A DNA stretch of 64,000 nucleotides, taken from assembly GCA_004022145.1 (NCBI GenBank), contig RCNU01000016.1; one strand, 5' to 3'. Origin of the DNA: Paecilomyces variotii. Its lineage: Eukaryota. Shown here in pieces: positions 45,863 to 63,398 of this stretch. Position numbers and translations under genes: made by a program. Each line of letters starts with the position of its first letter. Position 1 is the first letter of the stretch. The notes below the pieces were generated by a model. That model made no database searches, had not been told where the DNA came from, and saw nothing but the letters and a program-made list of their open reading frames with translations.

Positions 45863-46252
45863 CTAGCTCAGTTCCCTCTTAGCTTCATCCAAAACATCAT
45901 CCACCCAATTAACGCAGTTCCGCGCTGGCGGGTCAGGCTTTGTCTCCGTCAACACCCTTGGATCGTATGGCGGGGGATGTTTTGCCGCAATCTCTTCAAA
46001 ACGATGCAGCATCGATTTCGGAAGCTGAAATTGGAACGTCGAGTCCTTGTAACCGTCTATAGCACCAAATCTATGGCCTGGCTTTCGTTCGTAGTCCATC
46101 CCCATACCGACGGTTCCTTTAACGTGGTAGAATCGTCCAGCTAGCTGGTCACTGTTCTGAGCGGGCACCAACGCGATGCCTTCGTGGTCGGGGTTGCCTC
46201 GTTGTGTGAACCGGACTCGGTAGACGTTGTATGTTGTAGTTTCGAGAGACAT
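45863..46252 (-). CDS. 129-aa intronless fungal hypothetical protein (DUF6540-like; H...YHV.G...NC..W pattern)
   Basis: Clean ORF with DHEGIAL, GRFYHVKG and RNCVNWVDDVL. Family name recalled, not searched. Confidence 0.7.
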   Translation of the reverse strand: MSLETTTYNVYRVRFTQRGNPDHEGIALVPAQNSDQLAGRFYHVKGTVGMGMDYERKPGHRFGAIDGYKDSTFQFQLPKSMLHRFEEIAAKHPPPYDPRVLTETKPDPPARNCVNWVDDVLDEAKRELS

Positions 46253-47127
46253 GATGGGGGTTAGATGGCTAATCGTGGTATAATAGTATCGAAACGCTTA
46301 TAGTCTTTGTATTGTGTGAAGCGAGATCAGATCTGCCTCTGGCAAGGTGACAACACGTCAACTCTTACCTATTTCAGCTTCAGCTTTTCATGCCCTTGTT
46401 TCGTCGGACAGTCATTACAGAATCGGAGAGCGGCATCTCGCGCAAAAGGCTAATGGCAAAGTACAGTATAATGTCGAATCCACGATCTTCCTCTAAGGAG
46501 TTCTCCTTTTTGGTCGAATCAGTTAGGATCCTTCGACATATAACGGGAACCGCCTCCAACTATACGGGTTGGGGCTCTTTCCATCCAGATCAGCGAATAT
46601 ATATATCCGCGGAAATAGGAGTTGTATACGGCGATAGATGTAGTTCAGACATTGGTGCATTTCTTAATTCAAGGTAAGTTCAATCGCATCGTACTGCACA
46701 TGCTAGTGGCTTCATTACACAAATAAACGAGGGGAGGCACTTCTGGAAGACTTGAAGACACCATGTGCCAGCATTACGTCCAAACAAACAAGTTGATAAT
46801 TTTGGGGACCCTAGTGTGCTCCAGGCCTAGAGACTTCCCTTATCTTCCGGGTCAACTAGTGGACTGCACTGTGCAGCAGAGTCACGGATTTAGATGGCTT
46901 GTTTCAGGGCAGCTAGATCGTACCACAATGAAGTAGTTCTGAGAATAATTCAATTATGGTACCATTCAGAAGTCTCCCGGTTGGTTTCCCAAATCGCATG
47001 TAGCCTGGGTATTAACTCCTAGAATGCAAAATACCGCTTTGAAATGAACAATGGCAAATGATTCAATCAAATATTCGAAATTAGAACGAGGCGTAAGTAT
47101 AGACAAGAATGGAAACAGCGAAAAGAG

Positions 47128-48192
47128 TCAGGAAGACGGGGTCGCAACTTTGATTTTCCCCTCTGCTATTGCGACTTTCAGTAGATATCTGACATCTCGT
47201 CGTAGCTTCAGCAGGTGGGTCTCTGAATCCTTGACCTTCTGGAATTCGAATGATATAGTCCCAGCTAGATCGGTCACGTCGTTTGAAGCATCCTCTGAAG
47301 CATCCATGATATTCTGGCTGATAAGATCGGTTTCCTCACTTATCAGCGCTGCAATCCGATCCTTAAAAGCCTCCATCTCCCGTCGTTGTTGCAATTGCAT
47401 TTCTTTTAATAACTTTTTCGTGCTGTCAAGGATATTCTCAGCAACTCGGTCAATTTTGTCGCTGATTTCCTTGAGATCTTTATGAGAAACGGGCCGCGCA
47501 GATGTCGTTTCAGGAGGCGATGTATTGACTCTGCTCACCACGCCGTGCGCTGGATCCACGGCAGGAAGTCTGCTCTCATCCACAAAAGTTTCTGGATCAG
47601 TCGAAGTATTCATCCAGTTATCCATACGCTCCTGCCACGCGTTGAGCTTTGCTTGCTCCTCCTGCTCCTCGTCTTGCTGGGGTTGCTGTCTTGGTGTCGC
47701 CTCCAAAGCATCAAGTGGTGGTTTTTTGTCCTCGCATGGTCTTTTTTCTGCTTCTGTTCTCCTAGCCCGTCTCAAAAGTTGTCTGTTCCGTTCCGAATGC
47801 CATATCCACTGGCGCACAAACTCGGAGGCAGGAGTAAGAAGTTGCGCATCGTTATACTGACTGGGCTCGGAGTTCATAGCGATTCGAGTCCTCTCCTTCT
47901 TAATGCTCTCCTTGAATCGCCTTTGACACGACTGCCATGAAAACGTCCTTCTGGCTCGCTTTTGAAACTCTTCACTGATCTTAATCCAGTCTTTGCACTG
48001 ATAATCTGCGTCCCATCTATCACCAAAGGTTTCTTGGCATATTTGCAGGAGGATCAACTCCTGGTGAGCTGTGAGTCGCCCCCGAGTTGTCGCGATGGGG
48101 GTGACCCCTCCTAGCGATCCATTTAACCCATGCATCCCGGTAGGTGTACTGCGGGTAGTAGGAGGAGTAGGATTGTCCGCGAGGCCGTTCAT
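47128..48192 (-). CDS. Cluster gene A: 354-aa protein with Myb/SANT (trihelix/MADF-like) domain and C-terminal coiled coil
   Basis: LTAHQELILLQIC..DWIKISEEFQKRARRTFSWQSCQRRFK matches the helix1-W..I...F-S..C..R pattern; intronless ORF. Confidence 0.72.
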   Translation of the reverse strand: MNGLADNPTPPTTRSTPTGMHGLNGSLGGVTPIATTRGRLTAHQELILLQICQETFGDRWDADYQCKDWIKISEEFQKRARRTFSWQSCQRRFKESIKKERTRIAMNSEPSQYNDAQLLTPASEFVRQWIWHSERNRQLLRRARRTEAEKRPCEDKKPPLDALEATPRQQPQQDEEQEEQAKLNAWQERMDNWMNTSTDPETFVDESRLPAVDPAHGVVSRVNTSPPETTSARPVSHKDLKEISDKIDRVAENILDSTKKLLKEMQLQQRREMEAFKDRIAALISEETDLISQNIMDASEDASNDVTDLAGTISFEFQKVKDSETHLLKLRRDVRYLLKVAIAEGKIKVATPSS

Positions 48193-49070
48193 ATTTAGGC
48201 TTATCGGTGAGAGATGGAGATGTCAATCGCGGTGGTCAGAATCCAGACATATGGTTAATAGAAGATATTCCTAAAGAAGAACAAAGGGGAAAATCTGAGC
48301 TGACTGGAAATTGAATCTCGAATAAAATCGTATGATGGTTATCGTGAACTCCCCTGACTAGTGAGCGGTAAGACGCGCGCGACGCGACCTCTCCACGCGA
48401 TCAGTACGAAGGTTCTCCACCGAGAGGGACCAAGAACTGACGATGATCCTGCGAGAGCTCTTACAAGAGCCCTTAAAGAGACCTTTGATAGATATTGTCA
48501 TGTAATTACTAGGTATTCTACCTTTTTCCTATCAGAATCAATTGAGAAATTATCTACAAGGTTATGTTTCTGCCGGCAGTATTGGGCAAATATCTACTGG
48601 ATTGGGTAACTTTCGTCAGGCGGTGTACGAACAGACGCGTCTAACCGCGTGTTTGTCGCGATGGCGGTGAAGATCACGAGACCCGGGCCGAGGATGAGAA
48701 AGAATGCCTCGTTTGCCATGATGAAGCAGCTGTCATGATAACTGCCTCGAGGGTTGATATACGCAAGATACGATACAGGTTGCAGCATCGAGCAAGGAAT
48801 CTATATCCTAGTCAACCTACGATGTCACATTATTACACAAAGGAATCGATCTAGAATTACTATGTGAGTAAACACCGTGGGAGTGACCTTCTGATTCAAA
48901 TGAGCCTGAACAGCTATCAGCGCTAAAGATGAGGGCCACATTGTGTAAATAATTGTGGTTTCTATGCCCGAGAACCCACAGAACAAACTACCATTTCCCA
49001 GGAATCCATCAGTTTTCGTGTTCTTTTATTCTGCACGGAACTCTCGTTGCAGCTCTGAATCTACCATAGC

Positions 49071-49893
49071 CTAGACGACTTCGTGGTAAAAGCCCTCGTC
49101 GAGATCAGGATATTCAGCCTGATTTGCACCGGTGAAGTAGCTTGCCATGAATGATCCATCGAAAGCAGTAGTATCAGTCGCAGCAAAAGCTGCTGCAGAG
49201 TCGGCATAGCCGTTGGTCTGGCTATTGATTCTCTCCTGCTTTGGGTCCAACAGACTATCAGCCGTTTGAGGGAGCTGCTTGTCTTTGTCATCTCTCGCAT
49301 TCTCGATGCTACTGAGAACGCTGGTTTCGGTCTTGTATTCATCCGTGAACGAACTGCCAGACTCGACTTTCTCAGACTTAATCTGAACGGGGGTCTTGAT
49401 GTTCAACATGCTGATGTCAGAGTCGTCGTCGAGGTTGATGGCGTCGACAACGCTTTGGCCGCGCTTGCCCAAACCGCCCTTCTTGGATGGGGTCGATAGA
49501 ATCTTTGCGTCGAGATTGCTGCGGTGACTTTTCCCGCTCGACGGGGTGGATTTGGTGACACCATTTCTTGGTCCTCGAGGACCACGAGGAGTCCGGGGTG
49601 TGCCTCCGTTTCCACGGCCACGGGGAGGGACAGAGACTCCGTTCGCGGCGGCTTCCGACTTGAGTTGTTCGGCCTGGCGACGGTATTTACGGAACTGGCC
49701 TTCGATCGAATCATAACTTGCAGAGCGACCATACATGGCTGCCATTCCGTTGTAATCGAGCTGCGCATAGTCAGATATAAGAGCGATGATAAAAGCCCCG
49801 GAGGAGTAGCTCACTGACCTTAAGGCTAGGGTGAGCTGCGATCAAAGCACTGATGAGGCGTTCAGTGGCATCGGCACTCTTCCAGTTGACCAT
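49071..49893 (-). CDS. Cluster gene B: N-terminal Myb/SANT-like protein, 254 aa; exons 49893-49819, 49760-49071
   Basis: Spliced MVNWKSADATERLISALIAAHPSLK|LDYNGMAAMYGRSASYDSIEGQFRKYR; GTCAGT..CAG intron; PRGRG/TPR basic tail. Confidence 0.85.
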
Positions 49894-52139
49894 TTTTGTA
49901 GCTTTCAACGCTTCAGAATGCTACTTAGTTCTTCTATAAATGCATGTCAGTCTTTCTCATCGAGTATGATAAGATATGGAAGACATACAGATTCCGCCTC
50001 TGGGTTAAGGTATGGTGTGGTGTAAAGGATTTGGTGTGTAAAGTGGACAAGAGATGATGTAGAGACAAGGATACCAATGTGTTCCTCTTCCAGATGGGTG
50101 GCGTGAAAGGCAGAAGTAAATCTTGGGCACCCTCAAAGTTTGTTAAGTTGTAGTACAAGTGAAGCTCAAGGAACACAGTAGCCAAGGGTCGGTGAGAGAA
50201 CCACTGAGAGCAATAAAGTAGTCATGTACACGAAGACATAAGTCCAAGTATACTGAGGTGCGCGCTTTTATAAGTGCCAGACTCTAAACTGACGTTCATC
50301 TGTGGCCTTTCTGTTTTCAGCTCGCGGAACATATGTCAAGATCTTGGAGACAAAAGGATTTTTTTACACGTAGGGCTCTAATCGCAGAGATTGTGGAGGG
50401 GCATACTCTCAGTTCTGGCGGGGTTAGCCGCTTGAAGTAGCGAAATCAATAGATATGCACTCGCTGATAAAAGATCCCTCTGTGAATTCATCCAACATTA
50501 AGGTCCAACGCGACAGGTTTGTGGACACTGATACGACCCATAATGACACGATACAAGGAGCGATCAGCATGGCCATCCCTGTGGGATACGGTTTGAATGT
50601 ATACGCTATCACATTAATGCTGTCTCTAGACTTGAACCGGTTCTTTTTTTATGCAGGGATTTATCTGATCTGTTTGCTGGAATTAACTGGAACCAGGGCG
50701 AATGCAGTCTACTTTTTGTGATTTATCCAGTCAGAAATATAGATAAGTAGTTAAGGGACGGCTAGAGATGGATGCATGGAAATACATATGACTACGTATA
50801 GTGGCGGAAATTGGATTTTAATTTCTACTGCTGCATGTAGCATAGCGATTTGTTCGAATATGCTTTCTTTTAAGATACGAATATTCTCATGACTCCCTTT
50901 TCTGTGCCGGTCTTCAATGACTGGAAATCAGATAGCATCGTAAGCTGTGCTCCCCATCACAGCTATTGGAGGGCGAGTGCTAGCATCGCGTGTCGGGACC
51001 TGACTAATAGACAAGAGCCAGGACGTCAAGATTCGAACCCAAGAACGTGGGAATTGGAGCTATCAGGACACTTGCTCCAATCCGATGATTTCCAACAATG
51101 CGGCGCCATCAAGAGGGATATGCAGGAATCGTCTCGAGATAACACACTAACAAACATTATTATCCCAGCCTCACATGTCCTGCGGCTAGGCAGAAGCCGT
51201 TATGCAGTCCTACTGCCCGGGGATGTTAGCAGAAGAGTTACCCAGGCGATTCGGAATCTCGAAATGGCTTTCCGAAAGACATAGGTCCCTTTCTACCCCT
51301 ACACCGCCTCAGACGATGCCGTGATTCGAGCAGCAGAAGCTCCGTTCCTGCGCATATCGCGCGTCATTCACAGGGTCAAAGACGGCAGAGAGAGGGGTAG
51401 AGCTGCGTTTTCCGACAGACTGGACTCGAGGTATACGGAAGTACAGAGGGGAACAGGTGTCGTTGGCGTAAGGTTTGCTGGGTCGTCCGTAAGCGAGCAC
51501 GGATCGTCGCGCCTTGTTTGCGTTCTCCACGAGGCGCATCCACCATCATCCACCGGCTGGGATGTCGGCCACGCTGATCCTGTAGAGAGGCCGTTATAGA
51601 CTCGAAAAGGGACCCAGGGACAGTTTCTTGTTGGAACTTGGGAGCTGTCACGCATGAGAGATAGATTCTTGCGGGAAAGCTGTTGTTATCCTGCTGCAGG
51701 CTTGCTATCTTCTGAGGTGCCTGTACTTCTTTACGCTTCTTCACAGACGACACAGCTACTGATAGAATACACGACTGATCTTTAACTTCTACATTGGTCG
51801 CGGATGAACGCGGAATCGATACTTGATGGGCCTGAAAAGTGTAGTAATCTGTTAACAGATAACTAACTACGGCAATAAAGCCATCTTTTCAGACATAATT
51901 TCTCAAGTGAACGCAATCTATTCTCAAAAGTGACGGCTGGCTCCCTGGGAGGAGCCGATACTTCTCTCATAACACATTCTTCATTGTGTGCTTGCTCTTT
52001 GTTTTAAAACTCACCTCGTCCTCGACCCTCTCTCCCTCTTCTTCCACCACTCTCATCTCTCACACTGCATCCTATCACCCACTACTCTCTGAATACTAGC
52101 AGCTACAAACCAAGGCATAGCGTTCTTAAGCTTACCACG

Positions 52140-52938
52140 ATGCCTATGAGGTGGACTCCCGAGACGGACCAGCTTGTGAGCTTTTCCCACGCTTGTGCTC
52201 CATGAACATGCACAATTTGTGTTTTCATTCGAGTCCATCCCTCACGCCACCCTTGACCACAGACTGACATGAACACTGCTATAGTTGCTGCTGAAGATCC
52301 TCGAGACTCATAATCTCTCTGTCGACTCAAAGAAGGTCGCAGACGCATGGCGTAAGCCCATTTCCTCCCCATGCATAACTCCAATATTAACCCAACCAGC
52401 CGGAACTGAAGCTGGCTCTAAGCCCACTCCCCGCGCCATCACTGAACGTCTCGTTCGCATGCGCGCTCAGGTTAGAGCAAGCGGAACTGGAAATTTCAGC
52501 ATCGGCAGCAGCAAAGGCTCTGCAGCTTCCACTCCTCGCAAGCCGCGCGCTAAGTCTGCAGCAACCACTCCTGGCTCTGGGAAGCGCAAGCGCTCCGATG
52601 CCAATGCGAACGAGTCTGTCAATGGTGACGGCGATGAAGAGATGCAAGCCGATACTCCGTCAAAGAAGCAGCAGAAGCCAAAGCGTGGTCATGTCAAGAA
52701 GGAGTCGACCAGCTCTGAAATAACCATCCCGGACCTCGACACCATTGCCGCTACTCCCGCCAAGCGTACCCGCACTCCTGCTGTCCATCCTTCGGATATG
52801 GTAGTCTACCAGAGTGAGGGTGAGAACAAATCCATCGACAGCTCCGCGTCCGAGTATGTCCCCGAGGAAACAGTCGGACAGGAGAACACGTACCTCAAGG
52901 ATATCGATGACGAGATGGATGTGCAGGCTTGGGCCTAG
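52140..52938 (+). CDS. Cluster gene C: N-terminal Myb/SANT-like protein, 213 aa; exons 52140-52175, 52285-52351, 52400-52938
   Basis: Spliced MPMRWTPETDQL|LLLKILETHNLSVDSKKVADAW|PGTEAGSKPTPRAITERLVRMR; basic TP-rich tail with acidic end. Confidence 0.85.
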
Positions 52939-53764
52939 ATTGGACCACCTGTCTACTCTCACCTCGTGTCTCATCGCCAGTGCTCGTTTCATTGAGAAAG
53001 TTTTATGGTTTTCAGCTGTATGGAGCAAAGGGAGAGGAACTTTCAGAAACGCCAGCTTGGGGGGAAATTGGTTTTTGACCACCGGATGCCATGTATGTAG
53101 ATAGATTAGCATGCTAGTCCGTCGGAAATGGCCTACCTTTATGGGATCTACACTTCAGGAGAATATAAGCGGTAGTCTTCCTGTGTACTATTAAGATACT
53201 GTAGTGCCTAATAAGAGTGGATCTCATTGCTGTTCGCACACAACTATGCGATATGAAGTATTCTTTTTGAATTAGCCGACCTGCGGAATATATATTTACG
53301 AGTACTGCACGAAACGAGCTAAATACTGAACAGACAATCTACGCGGAACGTATAAGTGTCATATGTCTAGTTCGAGGCTTCTGTCACACGAAGAACTTCT
53401 TATTGTATAATTGGACAGAATACAGAGCGCGCGAGAGGGATCTTGAACTATTTTATTCGCAAACTTTCCATAACAGCGCCTTCGATCTCTGTAGAAAAAG
53501 GAGCTTGATATTTCTGTTATTCCTCAATAGACACCTCCCATAGGAAAATTCATCACGACCAACGACCAGGATACAGAAATAGTGACTAATCTCCAGGGGT
53601 TCGAGCTCAAAAATGGTCATGCGCAGACAGAACATAGGTTCCGTCACCAGAGCTACAAATCCATGTCCCCTAAAAACAACACCCTGTCTCATGACAACGC
53701 ACGACGAAACCCAAGTCATAGCGCATGAAGACGTGCATGCTCAGAGACAATAACGAGGAACCTC

Positions 53765-54223
53765 TTAGATAGTCTCATTGGTCACATTATCGTATTCTTC
53801 GATTGGCTCGGCCTTGATCTTCTTCGGAGTAATGGGATCGGCCGCTTCGCTCTCCTCGTCGTTGTCTGTCTTTGCGTTGCTTCTCTTCTTACGCTTGGAC
53901 GGAGTGTTCGGGGTAGAACCAGATGCTTTTCCGTTTGCTTTGTCTTTGAGCTTTCTGATCCGGTGCTGAATGGCATACACGGTACAATCTGATATTATTG
54001 GCGTTAGAAGTCAAGGTAGTAAGTAAAAGCGGTTGTGGAACTCACCGCCACCCATGTACTCCGAGAGCTTGTCATAATCCATCTTCACGTTACCAACAGC
54101 TATGATGGCGACCAGGAGCTAGTATTGAAGTTAGTAGTCTGTGGTAGTAAGAGTAGTTGGAGATTTGGTGATATAATGGGAACTTACGCGCGCATCTGCC
54201 TCCGCGTTCCAGCTCATAGGCAT
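53765..54223 (-). CDS. Cluster gene D: N-terminal Myb/SANT-like protein, 110 aa; exons 54223-54188, 54118-54046, 53988-53765
   Basis: Spliced MPMSWNAEADAR|LLVAIIAVGNVKMDYDKLSEYMGG|DCTVYAIQHRIRKLKDKA; canonical GTAAGT and GTGAGT donors. Confidence 0.85.
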
Positions 54224-54725
54224 CCTGGGAGAGAGATTTGAACAGTATTGTTGTAGAGGTGCGTAGATACTTTCAAGGTAAAGATAGAAAGTTACACTGC
54301 TCTAGGATGATGATGAGATGATAGGAGTTGAGAGAGAAATGCCCTGTAGCGTGAGAACTGAGAGGCAGAGTCAGACGTAAAGAGACGTTGAAGTGTTGCT
54401 TGTGGAGTGCAAGAAGTGAGGGCTTATCTGGACTCGGAGCTGCCCGCGCACTCTTTGTTTTCATAGATACAAGTAATCATAAAGGCTTTGTTCCCAACCT
54501 CGCTAGACTAGAAGGGCCCCAGTCTCTCGCTTGCAACACTCATCCACTGTCAACAGTATTTAATCTCTCAAATATCACCTCGTCCTTCTCCTAACATCTT
54601 TCATCTACAACTACCACCATCAGATAGCCCTCTACGCGTACGGAAGTGCCTACACTTATCTCTCAGTCAAACAGCCTCGCCATCCTCTACACCTTTCAAT
54701 ACCATCAATTCTCCAACCAACCACG

Positions 54726-55395
54726 ATGGCTCCGTGGACCGATTCCAACGACCGCAAGTTGCTTCTCACCTTGATCGATCTCAAGTCGAAGAAGGACTGG
54801 GCCCGCAGCGCTGAACTGATGGGTCCCGAGTTCACTGCTGAAGCTTGTCGGTAAGTACCTAATCTTCTGATCCATACTGTCATGCATAGATTCTATGTCA
54901 AATACCTGTGTGCTATAATTGGACAGTGACCAGTGTTCATAGTCTACCAGCATTCATGATAATATAGCGACTGTGATTATTTCTGACCACAAAGCCTGCT
55001 CACTGATTGTCTACCTCACATGTCACGTGGTCTATAGTTCTCCCTTTCGTCGGATATTGTCCTAGTCTGGCACAGCTGGCTTGAGCTTATCTTGACCTTT
55101 GTGTACCCATGTTATTTGATATCTTGCTCTGAGAAATACCTCACACTTGGATATATGCTGACCAAATAATAGCCAGCACTTTCGCAAATTCAAAGATGAG
55201 GTCGATGAGATAATCGCAGCCGCCGAGGGCAAGAAAAATACCTCTACCACCGCTGATCCTACGGCCGATACTCCTAAAGGACGCAAGCGCAAGGCCCAAG
55301 CCACTTCTTCCGTCTCTCCTAAGAAGCGTGGCCGCCGCGCTGCAGCCGCTAAAGTCAAGACCGAAAGCGCTACTGAGGATGAGGAGAGCTCCTAG
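54726..55395 (+). CDS. Cluster gene E: N-terminal Myb/SANT-like protein, 115 aa; exons 54726-54850, 55173-55395 (not in the ORF track)
   Basis: Spliced MAPWTDSNDRKLLLTLIDLKSKKDWARSAELMGPEFTAEACR|QHFRKFKDEV...TPKGRKRK...SPKKRGRR...VKTE; GTAAGT donor, GCTGAC branch, TAG acceptor. Confidence 0.82.
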
Positions 55396-56808
55396 GCTGT
55401 TTTGGAGGTACGGACGCCCGGATATGTTCTGCCTCTTATCGCGAATCTTGGAGAATAGAACTAATGAATTTGTATTCTTATAGAGATTAGATGACCGCCT
55501 TATGCGTTTCCAGCATCTGGCTGATGGATCTTTTGCCGGGTTTAGGACGGTTTGAATGTTCACTTGGGATGTACGCTCTAAAGTAGAGATAGTATCAATC
55601 GCAGAGATCTTCGTCGCGTATATTTCAGATTATCGTAGAGTCGTACATAAATGTCTCCGTTAGAAAACGCGCTTTCACTTTTTAAACGAGTATTTATATC
55701 TCATTCTCCATTACAATACGACTAGAAAGCACGCAGACAGTTCGATAATGATAGCCCGATGACAAGACTGCCATCGAAATGTTGCTGTGCTTACTCATGG
55801 TAGTTTCTGATTGATTCCACGCTACATAGTAGAAAATAGCATCATGCCTTGGACAAGGGCCAACATACAATCTTCCTTGATCGAGGAACACAACCGAAGT
55901 CTCAGGTGAAGAAAAGCAAATATATTAAACATCTTGCATGATAATATCAGACTAATTGACCTATTGAGAGAAGGCATTATTAAGACCAGCGTTTGAATTT
56001 CCAGTATTATTCTTTATCCTCATAGAACTGGACAGAATAACCCTCAAATTTGAGAGCCTCATGGAAAAGGATTGGTTGAAGACTACGGGTCATGATGGAT
56101 ATAAGCAGTTCAAGTGGATGCGGAACAATTACCTTTAAAGGAGGGTTAAAGAAGCAATTAGTAACTGTGGTTGATATGACTGGATATCACCCTTCAGAAT
56201 GGACTCAGTCTACAGGAAGCGACTTCTGTGACAAAAAGATAAAAAAGATAAACATTGATGATATTAACCATATCCTATCTAGAAACGCCCGAAGCCACCA
56301 TGGGCAACAGATAAAGTACACATATGTCAAGTGCTGGAGGACATGTCCATGTTGACTTTGTATCTGATATTATTCCCCTGCATCTCACCCCTCGTGTGCG
56401 GCTTACCCTCGTCATTCTTAGTCTGAGGTTTCGATTATCGGCTTGGGGATGAATATTGATCTCCACGTCCTTGTTTTCGAGGTTGTGGTCGTGGCCGTGA
56501 TTTCCTTCTAATCGATTTGCTTGCACCCCTTCGATTAGCGGGACTGCGACCGCGCTGATCGGCTTGAGTCCTGTTTGAGAAGGGAGTGGGAATCTGCACC
56601 GATTTGAATCTCCCGGTTTCAGGTGGTGAATATGCCCCGTTACTTGTCTCAGTACCTGGGCTTGCAGTACTATTGTTCGGCGAGGTCCTTCCTGGTGTAT
56701 CGTATCTGGCAGCGCGGGCAGATCGATGGTCCTGGCGAGAGCGTTTTTGTCTATTCTTGTTTCCGTATGTTCTCTTTTTGCGTTTCTCATGAGACACTGC
56801 TACGTATC

Positions 56809-57307
56809 TTAGGATTCTGGCTTATCACTAACCTGGTATGTCCGCTTTCTCGATTGTGGTGTAGCAGGAGCTGGAGACGACGATTCAGAGCACATGTCAC
56901 TCTCTTCCTCTGATTCCTCTCCTGAACCTTCCTCAAGATCGTCGGGGATGAACCGTTCACTGGTTTGCCGTCTCTCATCCAGCACTGCTCTTGCACGTTT
57001 ATAAATCTCAGGCAATTTCTTTCTGCGAGGGGTTATATTAGGTACACTCATGTTCCATATCGGCCTCTTGGGTAACATACCGAAGTGTATCCGCTGAAAC
57101 GATACTAGTCCCCAATTCTTCTGCGACGGCCCTGAAGTCGGGCTTCAATGGACTCATCTCGAGCGCCACTGCTAGAAACAGATGCTCCTGTCGGAGATCC
57201 CATTTAATCGGTCGTCGACGATTTATACCGCATGGAGATCTCGGCTCGTGGTCCACTCGGTTCTCTGTCGTATCGCGCTGGCGATTATTTATCTTCGTCT
57301 TCGCCAT
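56809..57307 (-). CDS. Cluster gene F: diverged Myb/SANT-like protein, 146 aa as read; exons 57307-57081, 57022-56809; may be 3'-truncated
   Basis: Spliced IKWDLRQEHLFLAVALEMSPLKPDFRAVAEELGTSIVSADTLR|KKLPEIYKRAR; GTATGT..CAG intron. A basic tail-like ORF continues out of frame to 56435. Confidence 0.65.
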
Positions 57308-59412
57308 CGTTGTTCTTGGGAGGTTCTGTTCAACGAAAAGCACCGGGTCACATAAGGCAGAGATCGGTGAGTATGCAAGAATTCTCTCTGCTCAGAGACA
57401 GAGGACAGACAGTTCAAAGCAATTCTACATGGTGCTAAATACTAAGAGACGGTGAAGCTAAAACGCGAATCAGACACGAAAGCGCGATTACATTTGGTAC
57501 TTTTGACAGGCATCGCGACGCAATGGTACATGCTTGGATTAGTTCAGTCAACGGAAAGATAATCGCTAAGGTAGTGAGAGTCCAAGGATCTAAGAGGTTA
57601 GTATTGATTCAAATTTGAGAGATAAGTCCCAAAATTATAGGAGATAATCCTCTGTAAAGTGCTTTTTGTGGGTCTAGTTTGGCCCTGCTCGTCCGTCGGA
57701 TATCACTAGTTTCGAAAGATGCGCAGACATGTCTCAGTCGCGTCTGCAATGGACATTACACGGTGAGATAGATACGCGACCAAGGCCAAGTCGCGAAGGA
57801 ATTGCTATCCACTTAGATGTTCTTAGATGTAGGAATCGTTGGGAGTAAATATGTACCAATGAGTAGTATAACCGTCGATTGCGAGAGAGATATGACAACC
57901 ACTAGTTCAGCAGTTTATGAATACAATAGATTCAATTACGACTTTGATCACAGTCATCTAGGTAGCGGATTATATGCCTCCTTGTCAGGTAGCATATCCA
58001 CAAGTGAGATGGCAAGATTTTCTGTTCTATTATCTCTCAAGACATTGTCCGAACCTTCCGCGAAAATCGCCATTGCGCTGTCCACATCGAGAACCGTGCA
58101 CGTAGACGACGCGTGTTGCCGTCGCGGGCTCTGTCTTTTGCATCTTCAGGATTCCTTGCCTTCGAGGATCAAAAAATGGAACAAACATCTGTTGGAGATA
58201 AGCTTCCTCCCCGGTGGCTTCAAAGCATTGCCCATTCCGCTGGGCTACACCATCTCGATGGCTTATGGTCAGCAGCACAAACAAGTGGTAGCATATCTTC
58301 ACAGCTGGTCTGGATCTCAATGCCTAGTGCTCCTTACCACGTGAGCTGCTCCGACGTAAGTAGTATATCGGACTCTTTAGACTGCTCAACCAAGAAGGAG
58401 AAATCTCCCCTTGGGCGCCCTGAATCAGACTTTGCATACATGTTTAACCTTCCCAATCCTGCCACTGGTTAATTACATCATAAAGCCTCTCAATCACCTG
58501 TTTAGTGGTTCCTCTGTGGGTACGGTAATCCCTGAAACCTCGTTTTCTTTGTACATATCTTGGGACCTGCGCTTTGTTAGATACCGATAAAGCTGATAAC
58601 AGGTAACTGGATATGTGGGAGATAACTGGTCTTTGCAATCGAACAAGGATAACTAGTGGGAAATGCAGTAAATGGCAAGCGTCTACCCGTAGGAATTATT
58701 TTTCTCTCTGGAATATACACAGTTTGATGACTATTCGGAACAACAACCCATGGAAAAATGTATCGGTCTATTGTAAAGAAATGGCAAAGAAGAAATACAA
58801 TCCGGAGAGTATCAGTTTAATAAAGAGGAGATCAGACTGCTTATCCACCGTCTGGACTCTTTTGAACCTGAAGGTGGTATGTGTAGAATTCACCCTCTTT
58901 AGGGTCTTTGAGAGACCCTTTCGACCAATGGCTAATAAAGGCACCGTGAGACATAGGAATGGACAGGGAGGATAAACTTTGCTTCCATATAGGCAACATC
59001 TAGCTCTTTCAGGCAAGTTTATAACGCTCCCCTTAGCGTTTGGCCCTGGAAGCCAATCAAAGAAGGGATCCCAAATCGTAAACCTTCCAGAATAAAGCTT
59101 GAACTGACTTCCAGGCTGCTGTATCATACAGATGAAACATGGTTCCAAATGTTAACGTGTATGTGATCTTTGTTCTCTGGAGGATTTTCTTTGTCGATCC
59201 GGATACTTGCATGTTTATCCGCCATGAGCAAGTCCTTGGCCCCCCAGCAATATTTATTCCTGACTTCCGTGCAGTAAGCTGATATCCGATCCATCATTCT
59301 CAGAAACCATATGTGCATTTCTGATAATCTCGGTGAGATTGGCCCCAATTAGACTCATCCTTGCACCCAAGTCTTCTTCACAGACCACTATCCACACATA
59401 TCACTCGTAGCA

Positions 59413-60033
59413 ATGGCTACCGGTCTGCGGCGCAGCAAGACCATGCCGGCCGATGGCCAGACGGCCAAGTTCCTCTACACGATCATAAAGCAGCTGGATC
59501 TGAAATCGGTAAGTTGGACGGCCTCTCCCCTCTCCGGGACCGGGATAAGGACCTTCGGATTTGAGACTGATCGTGGGAACACCGCTCCACAGATCGACTG
59601 GAACCTGGTAGCATCGCAACTGGAAATCTCCAATGGACATGCTGCACGCATGCGCTTCTCTCGGTTCAAGCAACACATGGAAGGCATTCCGACGAATCCA
59701 CGAAACCCGAGACCGAAGAAGACTCCGAACAAGAAACCCGCGAAGGGCGGTCTCAAGGGAGGATCCGGGAAAGAGACCACTCCGCCGCAGATTCAACCGA
59801 AAGAAGAGCATCCGGATGTTCCGTTCAACCTGTCGAATCCGTACAACGTCAAGAGTGAGCCAGCCCCTGAGTCAGCACTCTCGCTTGTTCCGCCGGCCAT
59901 GTCGTCCATAGCGCCTGCAACAGCGCCAATGCAGGCTGCGGCGTCCCAGAACGTCTCGTATCCCTTTCTGACGGTAGCGCCAGCAGACCTGACCTTGCAT
60001 CATCCTGTGCCTACTCATCCTTCGAACTTTTAG
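59413..60033 (+). CDS. Cluster gene G: N-terminal Myb-like protein; intron 59509-59592; coding-like frame continues past the TAG to 60147
   Basis: Spliced TAKFLYTIIKQLDLKS|IDWNLVASQLEISNGHAARMRFSRFKQHMEG followed by a P/K-rich tail. Confidence 0.85.
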   Translation: MATGLRRSKTMPADGQTAKFLYTIIKQLDLKSVSWTASPLSGTGIRTFGFETDRGNTAPQIDWNLVASQLEISNGHAARMRFSRFKQHMEGIPTNPRNPRPKKTPNKKPAKGGLKGGSGKETTPPQIQPKEEHPDVPFNLSNPYNVKSEPAPESALSLVPPAMSSIAPATAPMQAAASQNVSYPFLTVAPADLTLHHPVPTHPSNF

Positions 60034-61252
60034 CCCCAGTCTCATTTCTATCACGGGCAGCATCTATGGGCTCCTGTCAAGACGGAGCAGCAGGATGATG
60101 TGCGTATGAGCGATGTATTCGTCAAGGTGGAGCCACAAGGGAACTGACAGGATATTCTTCATTGGATTGTGGCCAAAGCACATGAATGTGTCCTTTCTGT
60201 ATGAATATGTTAGCTTCTCTAGAGTCTCGCAGTGTTATCCCATGTGTAAACCTCGAATACCATATTGAACCAAAGTCGGAATGTTCTATTCCTCTTGCTA
60301 TAGATATTCCATTATCAGCTTAATATCCCGTAGATATTCTAAGCTCTTTAATATCCATATAGTACTTCAGCATTCAGTATCAATATCTTCATGATTTGTA
60401 CCAACACTTTCGAGACGTCTGGATAACCTGTGCTCTTGTCTTTGTAGAGGTAGGACACTTGATGAGAATCATGGAAGTTCGCCAGCCAAAGAACAAAAAG
60501 ACCACGCTATGTGGTCGTCAAAAGGGTAGGTCGTAAAAGGCACAATTAGAGCACCTGGATATGTTACAGCATTGGTTGTTCACTGTGCAGAGCGGCTTGT
60601 CCCGTTTATAGTAACTTGTGCTCACTATCTTGTAGATACGATCTATTACAGAACGCCGAGAACCCCATGCCATGAAGGAAAACAGAACATGATAAACAGG
60701 ATAACCTATATTAAGCATATTAGGAGTCTATATCATATCCTCATCAGAGAGTATAAACTATAATGTAGTTCACTATCTATATCTATGTCTTGATCATAGC
60801 AATAATCACTACTATGGCCATGTAACCACACAAAGATACATTCTGGTCAATCATACATAGTGCTAGGTCAGCGTAACGTTATTTTCGCGGACGTAACGCC
60901 GCAGTGAATTTGACCCACGAACACTTCCTATGAGCTGTTTTTCTCTCACAATCGTGTGAGGTTCACGTCAACATTGATCCAACACACAGAGTTCTTCTCA
61001 CCTCCTCACATCCTCCTCCTTTCCATCCTTCATCCTCATTGATATCAAGACTCGGATAGTACACCCTGAACCATATCGAGGCTCGGGGTTCATTATTCAT
61101 ATCAGGATCAGGTCTGTATATCATATCTTTACTATCCTCGTTGATATATTATGATTCAACTCACTTTTCACGGTGAGAGATCAAGCTAATGTCCCATCCA
61201 TCTATAGAAAAATCAAATTCAGCATCAAGAATCGAAGACAAAATCGATCATC

Positions 61253-61901
61253 ATGGCTACCAAGACTGCTAACATCGACTCTGTCCTTTCCAAAGAGGGC
61301 GCCGCTCCCCGGGACGATTTCGGGTTCGCTCTCGAATGCATGAAGAGTCTCGATGACAACCACAATGTAATAGAATTTCCTTTCCTTTTCATTTCTGTGC
61401 CTCCATGTTGTATATGGAAATGATCATTTATACTAATCAGGGAGCACACAGGTCGATCTTACCAAGGTTGCCAATGCTTTGAACTACACAAACGTTCAGT
61501 CTGTCGGTAATAGATACCGTGTCTTCCGCAAGAAGTACGGTATTAACCTGAACTGCGTGACTGGTTCTGGCGTTGTCACCACCAAGGCCGGCGATGGCGA
61601 CGAGATCGACAGTCCCAGCCCTGTCAAGACACCTAGGAAGCCTCGTGCTCGCAAGGGCGCGAAGGTCTCCTCTGAGCCTATCCCGGCTACTGCTGATGAC
61701 AATTCAAACGATGCTGGCGAAGCTGTTGCCAAGCCGAAGACTCCGCGCCGCCGCAGGACGGTCAAGGAGACCGTCCAGGATACAGATGTGGACACCCTTC
61801 AGGCTGCTATCGACGACGCGGTCGAGAATGTCAAGAAGCGCAACAACACCAAGGTCGTCAAGAAGGAATCTGAGGATGAGACTACTGCGGACTCCGAGTA
61901 G
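61253..61901 (+). CDS. Cluster gene H: N-terminal Myb-like protein, 187 aa; exons 61253-61366, 61452-61901
   Basis: Spliced DDFGFALECMKSLDDNHN|VDLTKVANALNYTNVQSVGNRYRVFRKKYG; TACTAAT branch; SPVK, TPRK and TPRR in the tail. Confidence 0.82.
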
Positions 61902-62744
61902 ATGTCGTCAGACTTATTCTGACCAATACGAACGGTACGTTTTGTAGATTGCTATTATATCATCACCGGCAATGGATCATAACTGACGTGTCTACTTGAC
62001 AGGACAGTATCCGAGATCTGATTATGTTGGAACTTGGAAATCTGTATCTGTATGCTTGAGGGTCACCACTCACTTTGGGGAAGCTGTAAACATTGAAAAT
62101 TACGTTTTGTCCACCAGCGGGAGGAGATCTTGATATTGGCTCGATGCCAAGGGAGAGATAGTCCATGTAGACAGTCTCCGATGCAGCTGTATCTTCGAAC
62201 AGTAGCACCTAGGTCATTTGTGATAGCTAGTCGATCTCACTCACCAATAAATTGATATCATACTCATCTTCCTCTGTACAAAAGTATATATCAACATGGC
62301 AACTTTAACAGCATCTAGCAGGTTGAGACTGCGAAGATCCTAAAAGACTCAGGATGTCGTCTTGAACCCAAGTCTCATTTCTCTTGGAATGTCAATTTGC
62401 TATCCGATTGGTCTCGTTCATTCACCGCTATCCTTTGTCTGCCATCTCTGTATTCACTGTCCCCCAGGTCAAAGCGAGAGTGAGCTAAAGACAACACAAC
62501 CGCATTACGGCAAATAATTAATGCCACCTGACGCACAATATATCTGAACTCTTCCTCATCATCTGTCTTCTTCTGTCGGTCACTTTTACACTCTGGACAT
62601 TCCAGTGCAGTCTCTGACACAGCTTGATCAAAATACCAAGGTAATCAGTTCTGTCTTCATACTTCAGTCTGGTATATTTACTGAGATCCACATTTTGTGC
62701 TAGGTCTATCTATAGCAAGAAAACGCAACAAAAAAAACATCAAC

Positions 62745-63398
62745 ATGTCTCGTACCAACAGCGATGAGCAGCTCCAGTTCCTGCTCAGTTGTATCAGGTA
62801 CTCGAACAATGGAAAGGTCAGTTCTAGTTTTCATCTTACATCAGTTCTGCAGCTGTATTTCATTCCTCATGCATATAACAACGCTGACACATAACAGGTT
62901 GACTTCACTGAAGTCGCGAAAGAATGCAAAATCGTCTCCAAGGGCGCGGCGTAAGTTGCTTCCGTCCCATAATCTGCTATCTAGAGTTGAATGGAGTTCA
63001 TACTAACTTGCATAACAAGCGCCAAACGCTACGAGCGCATGATGAAAGCGAACGGCATCAATCCTAACGGTGGACCGTGTCCTCCTTCGGCTTCTCCCGA
63101 CTCCAAAACCAATACCCCGACCAAGGGTGCCACTGTGGGAAAAGCCACTAAGCGCAAGTCGAACGGAGGCAGTCCTGAGTCCAAGAAGGCGAAGATCAAG
63201 AAAGCTGCGATCGAGAATGCGGAGAAGCTTGTTGTTCCGAAGGAGGAACCATCTGACAATGAAAGCAAAGATACCCCTTCTCACACTGCGTATCTCAGCC
63301 AGGGAGCGATGGCGGACGAGGACACTGACAAGGACTTGTTTGATCAGTTCTGCAACACTGGCGAGGATGATTCTCAGGAGGAGGAGCTCTTCGCGTAG
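62745..63398 (+). CDS. Cluster gene I: N-terminal Myb-like protein, 167 aa; exons 62745-62816, 62898-62950, 63020-63398
   Basis: Spliced MSRTNSDEQLQFLLSCIRYSNNGK|VDFTEVAKECKIVSKGAA|AKRYERMMKANG; TACTAAC branch; basic then acidic tail. Confidence 0.86.

Follow-up and report, generated by a model that had tools for sequence, protein, structure and literature searches.

Eight diverged Myb-like genes of Paecilomyces variotii probably form an ancient cluster that is partly conserved across Pezizomycotina classes

Towards the end of a 64,000-nucleotide stretch of Paecilomyces variotii contig RCNU01000016.1 (hereafter the window) lies a run of small genes that raises two questions: are they old duplicates of a single family, and do their products work together? 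We consider it likely that the segment from 49.07 to 63.40 kb is an ancient cluster of eight paralogues, conserved in part across Pezizomycotina classes, which belong to one Myb-like helix-turn-helix (HTH) superfamily and probably act as a set. The members, in the order I, B, C, D, E, F, G, H, are intron-bearing genes encoding proteins of 110–254 aa (Table 1), and each protein couples an N-terminal three-helix domain of ~50–60 residues, in which helix 3 is net positive, to a disordered tail with abundant K, R, S, P, T, and E. The helix-1 and helix-3 strings quoted in a preliminary description of this DNA were all recovered in our gene models (8/8 and 7/7, respectively). Family-HMM matches are confined to 49.6–63.1 kb, with none in the first 47 kb of the window. 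The same description had proposed nine genes starting at 47.13 kb; the cluster itself stands, with eight members and a start at ~49.07 kb, and gene A is a neighbour rather than a member. Gene A had been credited with a related trihelix-type domain, and we rejected it as a ninth member, since it matched neither the family HMM nor PF22980 nor any other Pfam model. For this gene the Atlas offered no more than leads: at 0.90, clusters from Ascomycota that bear the name 'Sex determining protein', and structural matches to Myb_DNA-bind_4, every one of them sub-threshold.

Table 1. Gene models of the eight cluster members and of the neighbouring gene A (window coordinates).
Gene	Coordinates	Strand	Protein (aa)	Coding exons	Introns
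I	49071..49893	-	254	exon 1 49819-49893; exon 2 49071-49760	49761-49818 (phase 0, immediately before LDY of helix 2); 5'UTR intron 49934-49988
B	52140..52938	+	213	52140-52175; 52285-52351; 52400-52938	109 nt (phase 0, after codon 12); 48 nt (phase 1)
C	53765..54223	-	110	54188-54223; 54046-54118; 53765-53988	69 nt (phase 0, after codon 12, as in B); 57 nt (phase 1)
D	54726..55395	+	115	exon 1 54726-54850; exon 2 55173-55395	54851-55172 (322 nt, phase 2, splits the Arg codon of ..EACR)
E	56435..57307	-	251	57081-57307; 56833-57022; 56435-56773	57023-57080 (phase 2, alignment column as in D); 56774-56832
F	59413..60033	+	178 (this strain)	exon 1 59413-59508; exon 2 59593-60033	59509-59592 (84 nt, phase 0, open in frame)
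G	61253..61901	+	187	exon 1 61253-61366; exon 2 61452-61901	61367-61451 (phase 0, column as in F, H, I); UTR introns 61110-61205, 61934-62001
H	62745..63398	+	167	62745-62816; 62898-62950; 63020-63398	62817-62897 (phase 0, column as in F, G, I); 62951-63019 (phase 2)
A (neighbour)	47128..48192	-	354 (from first Met)	single ORF	

The genes are transcribed and spliced, given that 7 of the 11 predicted coding junctions were seen as GT..AG joints in RNA contigs of X3 and/or X6, representing two studies (I 1/1, B 2/2, D 1/1, E 1/1, G 1/1, H 1/2). Contigs of both X3 and X6 contain the two joints of B, the joint of D, intron 1 of H, and both joints of E, whose third exon had been missed in the preliminary description. 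The coding and 5'UTR joints of I are both present in an X3 contig, and the joints of G in an X6 contig. Of 22 joints, the 15 listed do not include the F junction, either C junction, or the second junction of H. The model of C was built from splice signals and reading frame. The F junction is supported by database proteins, since 8 of 11 F proteins lack the insert that the intron would encode. Intron 2 of H has GTAAGT and TACTAAC signals and uses the first AG downstream of the branch site, and the NCBI model P0122 (98% identity to gene H over the exon-3 query) is spliced identically. Gene E is oriented divergently to F, a position that D-type genes occupy in other fungi.

Judged from sequence comparison, the core of the superfamily is Pfam family PF22980 (Myb_DNA-bind_8; 'Myb-like DNA-binding domain-containing protein' in UniProt and NCBI), with B, D, and I as putative divergent branches beyond Pfam recognition. 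The gathering cutoff of this model (27 bits) is exceeded by F (read-through ORF; 60.5 bits, E 9.5e-17), by H via P0122 (84.9 bits, E 2.2e-24), and by two of three intron-free C-type orthologues (34.1 bits in L010 and 28.9 in L029, against 18.1 in L021). Exon 1 of E (16.9 bits, E 0.004) and exon 2 of G (15.3 bits, E 0.013) match below the cutoff and in register. Relatives of F number 296, and PF22980 is present in all 120 listed; it is also carried by 4 of 7 relatives of H, whose Atlas neighbours are Ascomycota clusters with this domain. B, D, and I are not recognized by Pfam (D and I as exon pieces): none of the 21 B orthologues found has any Pfam domain, and three full-length ones gave no PF22980 match at E up to 10. 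We therefore assigned these three genes to the family by profile comparisons, a leave-one-out HMM, and common intron positions and phases. Using hhalign, the B profile aligned to the C-type profile with a probability of 97.3% (E 1.9e-11), and the D-type exon-1 profile to F with 90.7% (E 1.2e-6), to B (2.7e-5), and to C (7e-5). C aligned to F (1.7e-4), the I exon-2 profile to the C type (9.5e-4, in register), and gene E to the D-type profile (0.005, in register). Comparisons of B with F (E 0.017) and with H (0.11) were weak. By blastp, G matched H at 1.7e-6; some of the pairwise blastp E-values carry no composition correction and are inflated by the low-complexity tails.

When each gene was scored against a model of the other seven domains (Z=10000), six of eight fell below E 0.05 (C 6.5e-10, B 5.6e-7, D 2.6e-6, H 2e-5, F 7e-5, I 0.01), and E (0.53) and G (0.72) failed. 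Such values, together with the Pfam silence on B-type proteins, the lack of any alignment between the I exon-2 profile and F, the tail-inflated blastp values, and an HMM from F orthologues alone that found none of the other members below E 0.1, would fit a smaller true cluster, with I, E, and G (perhaps also B and D) resembling PF22980 genes by chance or through convergence between short helical domains that have low-complexity tails. We regard this as improbable, even with I as the weakest member, because PF22980, an independent model, aligns in register with exons of E and G and the strongest profile alignments (B with C, D with F) used profiles built from other species. All eight domains can moreover be aligned helix by helix, and intron positions recur among them: a phase-0 intron lies at alignment column 30 in F, G, H, and I, and a phase-2 intron at column 55 in D and E and one column away, at column 54, in H. 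In both B and C, codon 12 is followed by a phase-0 intron, and a phase-1 intron interrupts the loop. I-, G-, and D-type orthologues also adjoin F elsewhere. The single common layout and the paralogy of Myb-like three-helix proteins, both proposed from the letters alone, are thus borne out by HMM scores beyond chance and the independent E and G matches, with F, H, and two of three C-type proteins passing PF22980 and the rest joined through profiles and introns.

A self-blastn of 49–64 kb returned nothing between the genes below E 0.4, the best match being 21 nt around the start codons of B and C, and protein identity between copies is 19–28%. The duplications are therefore old, in agreement with the earlier view that the copies lack DNA-level similarity and are not a recent tandem array. 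Recent tandem arrays likewise consist of adjacent members of one family; here, in contrast, DNA similarity is absent, orientations are mixed, and each copy has orthologues in other classes, which makes the duplications ancient. They are older than the separation of Eurotiomycetes from both Sareomycetes and metagenome lineages that are probably lichen-related, and the individual paralogue types have remained distinct ever since.

Linkage is retained in other fungi, where every paralogue type is represented by an orthologue of its own within the linked set, which bears out the earlier view of a physically maintained cluster. A Thermoascus-like contig (L001/L002), whose F protein shares 69% identity with its counterpart in Thermoascus crustaceus, carries B+, C-, D-, D'-, F+, G+, and H+ in the order of the window. 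The 80 metagenomic fungal loci that we analysed form 49 distinct groups, 20 of them with a locus of at least 10 kb; in 13 of these 20 long groups at least one further family gene lies beside F, and in five at least four do. Among 13 named assemblies in which both genes could be located, F and H are 2–4 positional locus tags apart in seven (P. variotii, Arachnomyces sp., Polytolypa, Helicocarpus, Trichophyton benhamiae, Aspergillus tanneri, and Sarea resinae), on equally long contigs in four, and on different contigs in two, so that their close linkage spans Eurotiales, Onygenales, and Sareomycetes. F and B are three tags apart in Thermoascus crustaceus and lie on equally long contigs in five Aspergillus species. 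I-type orthologues adjoin F in L036 and L047, and G-type orthologues occur in L001, L050, and L057. Gene order and orientation vary by lineage: C follows H in L010, L031, L033, and L040, and the window has D in the opposite orientation to that in other loci.

Hox and ParaHox clusters and plant tandem arrays of R3-MYB or MADS genes are old linked duplicates of one DNA-binding-domain family. The genes described here are likewise old duplicates that have long stayed linked, each with its own orthology group. They differ from those clusters in their tiny size and in an order and orientation that vary from one lineage to the next, and part of their linkage may be background synteny.

The proximity of true old tandem paralogues could also be a frozen accident of slow segment rearrangement, with no functional coupling, co-regulation, or heteromers. 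Several observations lend this reading some weight, and we hold it to be possible, though the less likely one. The linkage in L032, L050, L059, and L060 extends to UFD1, a GYF protein gene, and a conserved gene at 40.6–42.1 kb; since these flanking housekeeping genes are syntenic too, part of the conserved linkage may be ordinary local synteny of the segment rather than cluster-specific selection. Besides the variable order and orientation within the cluster, F stands alone in 7 of the 20 long locus groups at the thresholds used, has left the B–H neighbourhood in P. lecythidis, and lies on a different contig from H in Malbranchea. Between the window and L001, conservation is limited to the family genes, and no conserved non-coding blocks were found. 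Against an accident, several paralogue types remain within 10–20 kb in two named classes and several further lineages whose F proteins are just 35–47% identical overall, whereas filamentous ascomycetes reportedly shuffle gene order and orientation within chromosomes. The divergent arrangement of a D-type gene and F recurs in at least ten distinct locus groups, and pairing of the F and H domains in silico gave a weak pass. The neighbourhood retained in distant fungi hints that these uncharacterised proteins work together or are regulated together. As a set, the members would probably share regulation of the divergent pairs I/B, C/D, and E/F, and could possibly be coupled through domain-domain pairing.

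Myb/SANT-like domains of the Myb_DNA-bind_3/4/5 type often derive from PIF/Harbinger-like elements, and one D-type exon matched Myb_DNA-bind_4 (E 0.0019), so we considered whether the locus could be a transposon graveyard of domesticated or decaying Myb-like accessory genes. Such an origin is highly improbable: the genes are expressed as spliced RNAs, they are surrounded by neither repeats nor inverted repeats, and housekeeping genes flank the region. Each type furthermore has single-copy-like orthologues that are syntenic across classes. Nine intergenic or antisense ORFs (127–210 aa) contain no Pfam family and no transposase, which also upholds, from I to H, the earlier statement that no intact gene of another family lies between the members.

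The domain is already in Pfam, and public genomes already list the products of these genes as hypothetical or Myb-like proteins. The Pfam entry is silent on genomic clustering, and our literature search returned no paper on the Myb_DNA-bind_8/PF22980/IPR054505 family or on the cluster, and no family member with an experimentally tested function. In the AF2 model of F, helices span residues 15–28, 35–41, and 47–61 (pLDDT 75–84), and the remainder is disordered. The best Foldseek match was c-Myb R2 (E 2.2; TM 0.61 by target, rmsd 2.0 over 42 columns), next to the SMRT DAD (E 2.3). The best VIA-align score (Z 5.7) was shared by Myb, AsnC, LuxR-type, and other HTH domains, with ZZZ3, Cdc5, and UFL1/DDRGK1 at Z 5.0–5.7; no solved structure of any sequence relative was found. 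Scores for the modelled fold do not single out Myb among HTH folds. Canonical Myb/SANT domains (c-Myb R2, Cdc5, the plant GT-1 trihelix, MADF/Myb_DNA-bind_4) are likewise three-helix bundles of ~50 residues, and the likeness extends to a basic recognition helix and to D, where W4, W25, and F45 (spaced 21 and 20 residues) are followed by ACRQHF, a pattern that we take to resemble the Myb repeat signature. In contrast to canonical Myb proteins, the cluster proteins are single-domain rather than R2R3 tandems, and F, G, and H are without the first tryptophan of the Myb triad.

That missing tryptophan, the SMRT, ZZZ3, Cdc5, and UFL1/DDRGK1 matches level with DNA-binding Myb, and the weak F:H pairing would also suit SANT-like adaptors, in which the domain binds histone tails or other proteins and any nucleic-acid contact is left to the basic tail. 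We think this unlikely: SANT domains are typically acidic in helix 3, whereas all eight domains here carry a net charge of +1 to +4 and their third helices +1 to +5, and in D, helix 3 still carries the ACRxxF motif and the aromatic residues still follow the Myb-like W-x20-W-x19-F spacing. Under the favoured reading of a Myb-like set, we infer from the Pfam name, fold, and charge that the proteins would be nuclear and would bind DNA or chromatin through helix 3, with the basic tail presumably serving nuclear import and non-specific contacts. The tails may also be subject to SUMO control, as suggested by their psi-K-x-[ED] motifs (the psi-K-x-E type), which number 13 against 5.0 expected from shuffles; orthologues of F retain two of these motifs in their tails.

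Eight expressed paralogues make up the cluster, each encoding a small basic three-helix domain followed by a disordered tail. We derived their gene models from three-frame views and splice signals (coordinates in the table below). All helix strings quoted in the preliminary description, which had proposed nine clustered Myb/SANT-like genes from the sequence alone, were found in these models. The F product is 99% identical to a P. variotii protein, and the 178-aa form of F encoded in the window is recorded for this species as well (database protein P0180).

Window coordinates and strands of the eight Myb-like cluster genes
Gene	Coordinates	Strand
I	49071-49893	minus
B	52140-52938	plus
C	53765-54223	minus
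D	54726-55395	plus
E	56435-57307	minus
F	59413-60033	plus
G	61253-61901	plus
H	62745-63398	plus

For the transcript check, assembled RNA contigs from four runs in three studies were placed on 46.5-64 kb. GT..AG joints in runs X3 and/or X6 match at least 7 of the 11 predicted coding junctions among the joints listed, namely those of I, B (both), D, E and G and the first junction of H; the two junctions of C, the F junction and the second of H are absent among them. The expectation that the predicted junctions would appear in RNA was thus borne out for the first set. For two of the other four, protein and splice-signal data are at hand. The 28-37-residue insert that the F intron would encode is missing from 8 of 11 database proteins. 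Intron 2 of H is spliced in the same way in the NCBI model P0122 and carries GTAAGT, TACTAAC and, as its acceptor, the first AG after the branch site. RNA joints additionally revealed an extra intron in E, which gives this gene a third exon, as well as UTR introns in I and G. With 322 nt (54851-55172), the D intron is several times the length of all other cluster introns (48-109 nt), and its joints occur in two runs.

Some transcript contigs show further features. Inside the plus-strand gene F, contigs from X3 and X6 contain CT..AC joints at 59500-59552, equivalent to GT..AG on the minus strand, and X6 contigs contain such a joint at 62936-63007 inside the plus-strand gene H. Read in the sense frame, the F joint would shift the frame and run into an early stop; that of H stays in frame and replaces the conserved SKGAA motif. 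On these contigs, from which no strand can be read, the joints resemble those of spliced antisense transcripts covering the exons that encode the F and H domains. An X3 contig runs continuously from 50831 into B exon 1 and then across both B introns. This may reflect a B 5' leader of ~1.3 kb (50831-52175), or an upstream transcript co-assembled with B; the ORFs within this leader match no Pfam family. Two metatranscriptome runs, X1 and X2, cover 46.5-64 kb with unspliced contigs of up to 6.4 kb bearing many strain differences to the window; these probably stem from DNA or unprocessed RNA of a different P. variotii strain present in a sample of fermented food.

We assigned the genes to a family using PF22980 (Myb_DNA-bind_8), whose gathering cutoff is 27 bits. 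Two window genes score above it: F with 60.5 bits (E 9.5e-17; read-through ORF, in two stretches flanking the intron) and H with 84.9 bits, in a match that covers positions 1-49 of the 50-position profile and was scored via P0122, the P. variotii H model that is 98% identical to window H exon 3. Intronless C-type orthologues in metagenomic fungal loci reach 34.1 bits (L010) and 28.9 bits (L029), both above the cutoff, and 18.1 bits (L021), below it; exon 3 of window C alone, a gene split by two introns, gives no PF22980 match. Exon 1 of E (16.9 bits, E 0.004) and exon 2 of G (15.3 bits, E 0.013) align in register and stay under 27 bits, each being a part-domain on a single exon. Three full-length B orthologues (P0129, P0131, P0143) have no PF22980 match at E values up to 10, and none of 21 B relatives carries a precomputed Pfam domain. 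For D and I, the exon pieces and, in addition, an I-type ORF (L036) were scanned as part-domains and likewise show no match to PF22980; a D-type exon of L032 matches Myb_DNA-bind_4 (E 0.0019).

These gaps were bridged with profiles built from other species. In hhalign comparisons, B matches the C-type profile with 97.3% probability (E 1.9e-11), and by this measure B appears to be tied to the family solely via the C type. The profile of D-type exon 1 matches F (90.7%, E 1.2e-6), B (2.7e-5) and C (7e-5); further links connect C with F (E 1.7e-4), I with C (E 9.5e-4) and E with the D-type profile (E 0.005). The family links were routed via the C-type and D-type profiles because direct comparisons with F or H are weak (H with F, 0.0069; B with F, 0.017; B with H, 0.11) or, for I with F, empty. 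When each gene was searched with an HMM of the other seven window domains (Z = 10000), C (6.5e-10), B (5.6e-7), D (2.6e-6), H (2e-5), F (7e-5) and I (0.01) were recovered at lower E values than E (0.53) and G (0.72). Across the window, matches to the family HMM are confined to 49.6-63.1 kb. An HMM from F orthologues alone (88 sequences) is too specialised, as it finds only F (G 0.11, H 0.21, D 1.7). One apparent relative, the metagenomic protein P0296 (1511 aa), matches the H profile in 15 stretches and was rejected as a translated tandem DNA repeat.

Intron positions provide evidence for common descent of the eight genes that is independent of these profiles. F, G, H and I have in common a phase-0 intron in the same alignment column, directly before the [I/V/L]-D-[W/L/F/Y] motif of helix 2, and D and E have in common a phase-2 intron in helix 3. 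The phase-2 intron of H lies one column off that of D and E and, in D and H alike, exactly 125 coding bases in; with both intron types, H bridges the two classes. Two intron positions unite B and C, one (phase 0) directly after codon 12 and the other (phase 1) in the loop that precedes helix 3. By the intron criterion, E is a D-class gene. In the metagenomic locus L001, two adjacent minus-strand D-type genes (6170-6811) lie upstream of F, at the position of window E. Taken together, this D-type pair and the phase-2 intron common to D and E suggest that E arose as a duplicate of the D type and evolves fast, and that an inversion of D took place in P. variotii.

The preliminary description had held that the N-termini share a Myb-like fold; our structural analysis upholds the three helices and is compatible with the assignment to Myb. 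An AlphaFold2 model of F, based on a 20-sequence alignment, places helices at residues 15-28, 35-41 and 47-61 (pLDDT 75-84) and leaves the remainder disordered, giving the three-helix bundle of ~50 residues that characterizes Myb/SANT domains. A B-type model has the same helices and is of little use, as the first row of its alignment (P0128) is a mis-spliced Logan model. A Foldseek search of the F model against the PDB returned no row at E <= 0.001, the best being c-Myb repeat 2 (E 2.2), and exhaustive VIA-align comparison peaked at Z 5.7 in a tie of the Cdc5 Myb, GT-1 trihelix, AsnC-type, DosR and other HTH domains. At the sequence level, F- and C-type profiles had no match among PDB sequences at E <= 5, i.e., no sequence relative with a solved structure. 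As modelled, the fold is a generic three-helix HTH, compatible with Myb and not diagnostic of it.

Myb repeats follow the rule W-x19-21-W-x19-21-W/F, with three aromatics at regular spacing. In D, W4, W25 and F45 occur at Myb-like spacing, together with an ACRQHF motif. The first tryptophan is also present in B, C, E and I and missing in F, G and H; the second position holds W, F, Y or L (S in B), and the third F, Y, L or I. All eight domains have a net charge of +1 to +4, with +1 to +5 in helix 3. The tails consist of 77-96% K/R/S/P/T/G/E/D/Q/N/A, and seven of the eight (all except I) contain basic runs of the NLS type. Across the tails, 13 psi-K-x-[ED] motifs were observed as against 5.0 expected from shuffles, and two of them are conserved among F orthologues. 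Proteins of this kind could bind DNA or chromatin in the nucleus via helix 3, the disordered tails would serve nuclear import and non-specific contacts, and their activity might be under SUMO control.

Gene A (47128-48192), which encodes 354 aa in a single exon, had been counted as the ninth member. Its N-terminal region looks Myb/trihelix-like and its C-terminal half is coiled; however, it matches no Pfam family, has no Myb Pfam match at E <= 1 and is not found by the family HMM, and we therefore dropped it from the set. By these searches, gene A is best regarded as a neighbour of the cluster. Its nearest Atlas entries are Ascomycota clusters auto-named 'Sex determining protein' (score 0.90), which we treat as a lead, and all Atlas structure rows linking it to Myb_DNA-bind_4 clusters fall under the bar (TM 0.22-0.33). 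The first 47 kb of the window encode a HAD-type hydrolase domain, an EH-domain protein, RPC82, an M16 peptidase, a sugar transporter, a GYF protein and UFD1, and these housekeeping genes mark the region as core genome. Between UFD1 and A, a small minus-strand ORF (45866-46297) matches DUF6540 (65.8 bits).

The duplications are old. In a self-blastn of 49-64 kb, no similarity between genes fell under E 0.4, the best match being 21 nt (E 0.47), and pairwise protein identity among the members is 19-28%. Together these values rule out a recent tandem array, in agreement with the preliminary description, which had seen no DNA-level similarity between the copies. The only self-match under E 0.01 in this interval is an imperfect palindrome of ~31 nt in the I/B intergenic region (51838-51868). 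A transposon origin of the cluster was considered and rejected on the basis of the self-blastn and a Pfam scan of intergenic ORFs.

We then asked how far the linkage extends to other fungi, comparing F with H in 13 assemblies by locus tags from protein searches and cluster look-ups. The two genes lie 2-4 positional tags apart in seven: P. variotii, Arachnomyces sp. PD_36, Polytolypa hystricis, Helicocarpus griseus, Trichophyton benhamiae, Aspergillus tanneri and Sarea resinae. Sarea belongs to the class Sareomycetes, and the other species with adjacent tags are Eurotiales (including P. variotii, Thermoascaceae) or Onygenales. In four assemblies (P. variotii No. 5, Xylona heveae, Uncinocarpus reesii and A. 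heteromorphus), F and H are on equally long contigs with non-positional tags. They are on separate contigs in two, Paecilomyces lecythidis and Malbranchea cinnamomea, where the separation could be due to relocation or to an assembly break. In P. lecythidis, B (008776) and H (008781) are five tags apart, and F (009620) is on another contig. For F and B, the distance is three tags in Thermoascus crustaceus; five Aspergillus species have the two genes on equally long contigs, and A. tanneri has them on different ones. Proteins of the H type occur widely, with 367 representatives at E <= 0.001 that include Leotiomycetes and Chaetothyriales.

Metagenome contigs were additionally scanned with the F alignment, yielding 80 loci with flanks of up to 10 kb per side that form 49 groups at >=95% DNA identity, and these loci were searched with the spliced window proteins and the family HMM. 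Loci L001 and L002 contain B (plus), C (minus), two D-type genes (minus), F, G and H (all plus) in the same order as in the window; their F is 69% identical to that of T. crustaceus. Six-frame and DNA comparison of the window with L001 revealed nothing conserved between the clusters aside from the family genes, including no conserved non-coding element, and the remaining 5.5 kb of L001 past H are without a family match. In more distant groups, where overall F identity is 35-47%, members of the L012-L019 group carry five or six family genes, B, F and H types included, in ~15 kb. Other loci contain B, D, F, H and C (L031), a D-like gene followed by F, H and C (L040), an I-type gene followed by F and H (L036 and L047), or F, H and C (L010, with an F 71% identical to that of Pleopsidium flavum). 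A D-type gene is divergent from F in at least 10 groups, a place occupied by E in the window, and type-specific motifs of B, C, D, G, H and I adjoin F in other loci.

Among the 20 groups with a locus of at least 10 kb, 13 have at least one further family gene and five have at least four. At the search thresholds, F stands alone in the other seven (L004, L007, L025, L027, L072, L077, L079); in L072, L077 and L079, a D-like ORF upstream of F is found at E 1.3-2.6. The proposal that each paralogue has its own clustered orthologue is borne out by the L001 set, by the type-specific motifs beside F in other loci and by F and H in 7 of 13 assemblies, and not where F is alone. In that paralogues have linked orthologues of their own in other lineages, the cluster resembles a Hox-like organisation, with order and orientation varying between lineages. 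Some of the housekeeping genes that flank the cluster likewise stay with family genes in distant loci: L032 has UFD1 and GYF, L050 has UFD1 together with the conserved gene from 40.6-42.1 kb, and L059 and L060 have the latter gene, so part of the conservation of the cluster may be background synteny. Filamentous ascomycetes are said to reshuffle gene order within chromosomes, in which case the retained tight linkage would be notable. The locus itself is a real, old and partly conserved cluster of a known family.

The domain is already catalogued in Pfam, and existing annotation lists the genes as hypothetical or Myb-like proteins. We found no paper naming PF22980/Myb_DNA-bind_8, IPR054505 or six F/B orthologue locus tags, and supplementary tables could still list the genes. 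What appears to be new is the eight-gene locus, the addition of the B, D and I types to the family and the finding that different classes have kept the locus in part. The family is fungus-specific, we found no studied member, and it is present in major human pathogens, with F orthologues in Aspergillus fumigatus, Coccidioides and Histoplasma, H orthologues in Blastomyces dermatitidis and both in Trichophyton. The locus provides a frame for this family, as it unites eight deeply diverged members, three of them apparently outside Pfam's current model, and much of it is retained in at least two named classes. It also offers an experimental handle, since a single deletion of ~14 kb would take out the whole set. 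If the linkage is selected, the locus would be a rare case in fungi of paralogous regulator genes, and not metabolic genes, staying clustered over long times; otherwise, it would still be a clean natural series for the divergence of a minimal HTH domain.

Three divergent pairs (I/B, C/D and E/F) open the cluster and the tandem genes G and H close it, an arrangement that would allow shared regulation. Physical pairing was modelled for F(1-75) with H(1-62), without input of our own alignments. The two domains pair with an ipSAE of 0.46 (best control, 0.00), with contact agreement between runs of at least 93% and a partner pLDDT of at least 69. This mark is reached by 51 of 78 solved complexes and by 2 of 108 mismatched pairs; the range of 0.60 or under holds five of those 78 complexes and all four passing mismatches (of 180). 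Of 44 neighbouring gene pairs drawn blindly, 7 pass the test as well. The pairing test thus lends weak support to a possible F:H heteromer and falls short of establishing heteromers. A far more ambitious reading would see a selectively maintained Hox-like locus specific to leotiomycete-grade Pezizomycotina, in which the eight ancient paralogues, each with a single Myb domain, share regulation by way of three divergent promoter pairs and spliced antisense over F and H, form combinatorial homo- and heterotypic domain pairs on chromatin and act as one genetic unit; we consider this unlikely.

A minor observation concerns the end of gene F. In the window, F stops at a TAG (60031-60033) after ..HPSNF. 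In other P. variotii strains (P0001 and relatives), the protein extends 38 residues further, to 216 aa when spliced or 244 aa with the intron retained. The tail missing from window F includes W-x-P-x-K-x-E and a terminal VKxEP block, both conserved in 11 of 11 aligned database orthologues, and those 38 residues are still encoded in frame directly past the stop.
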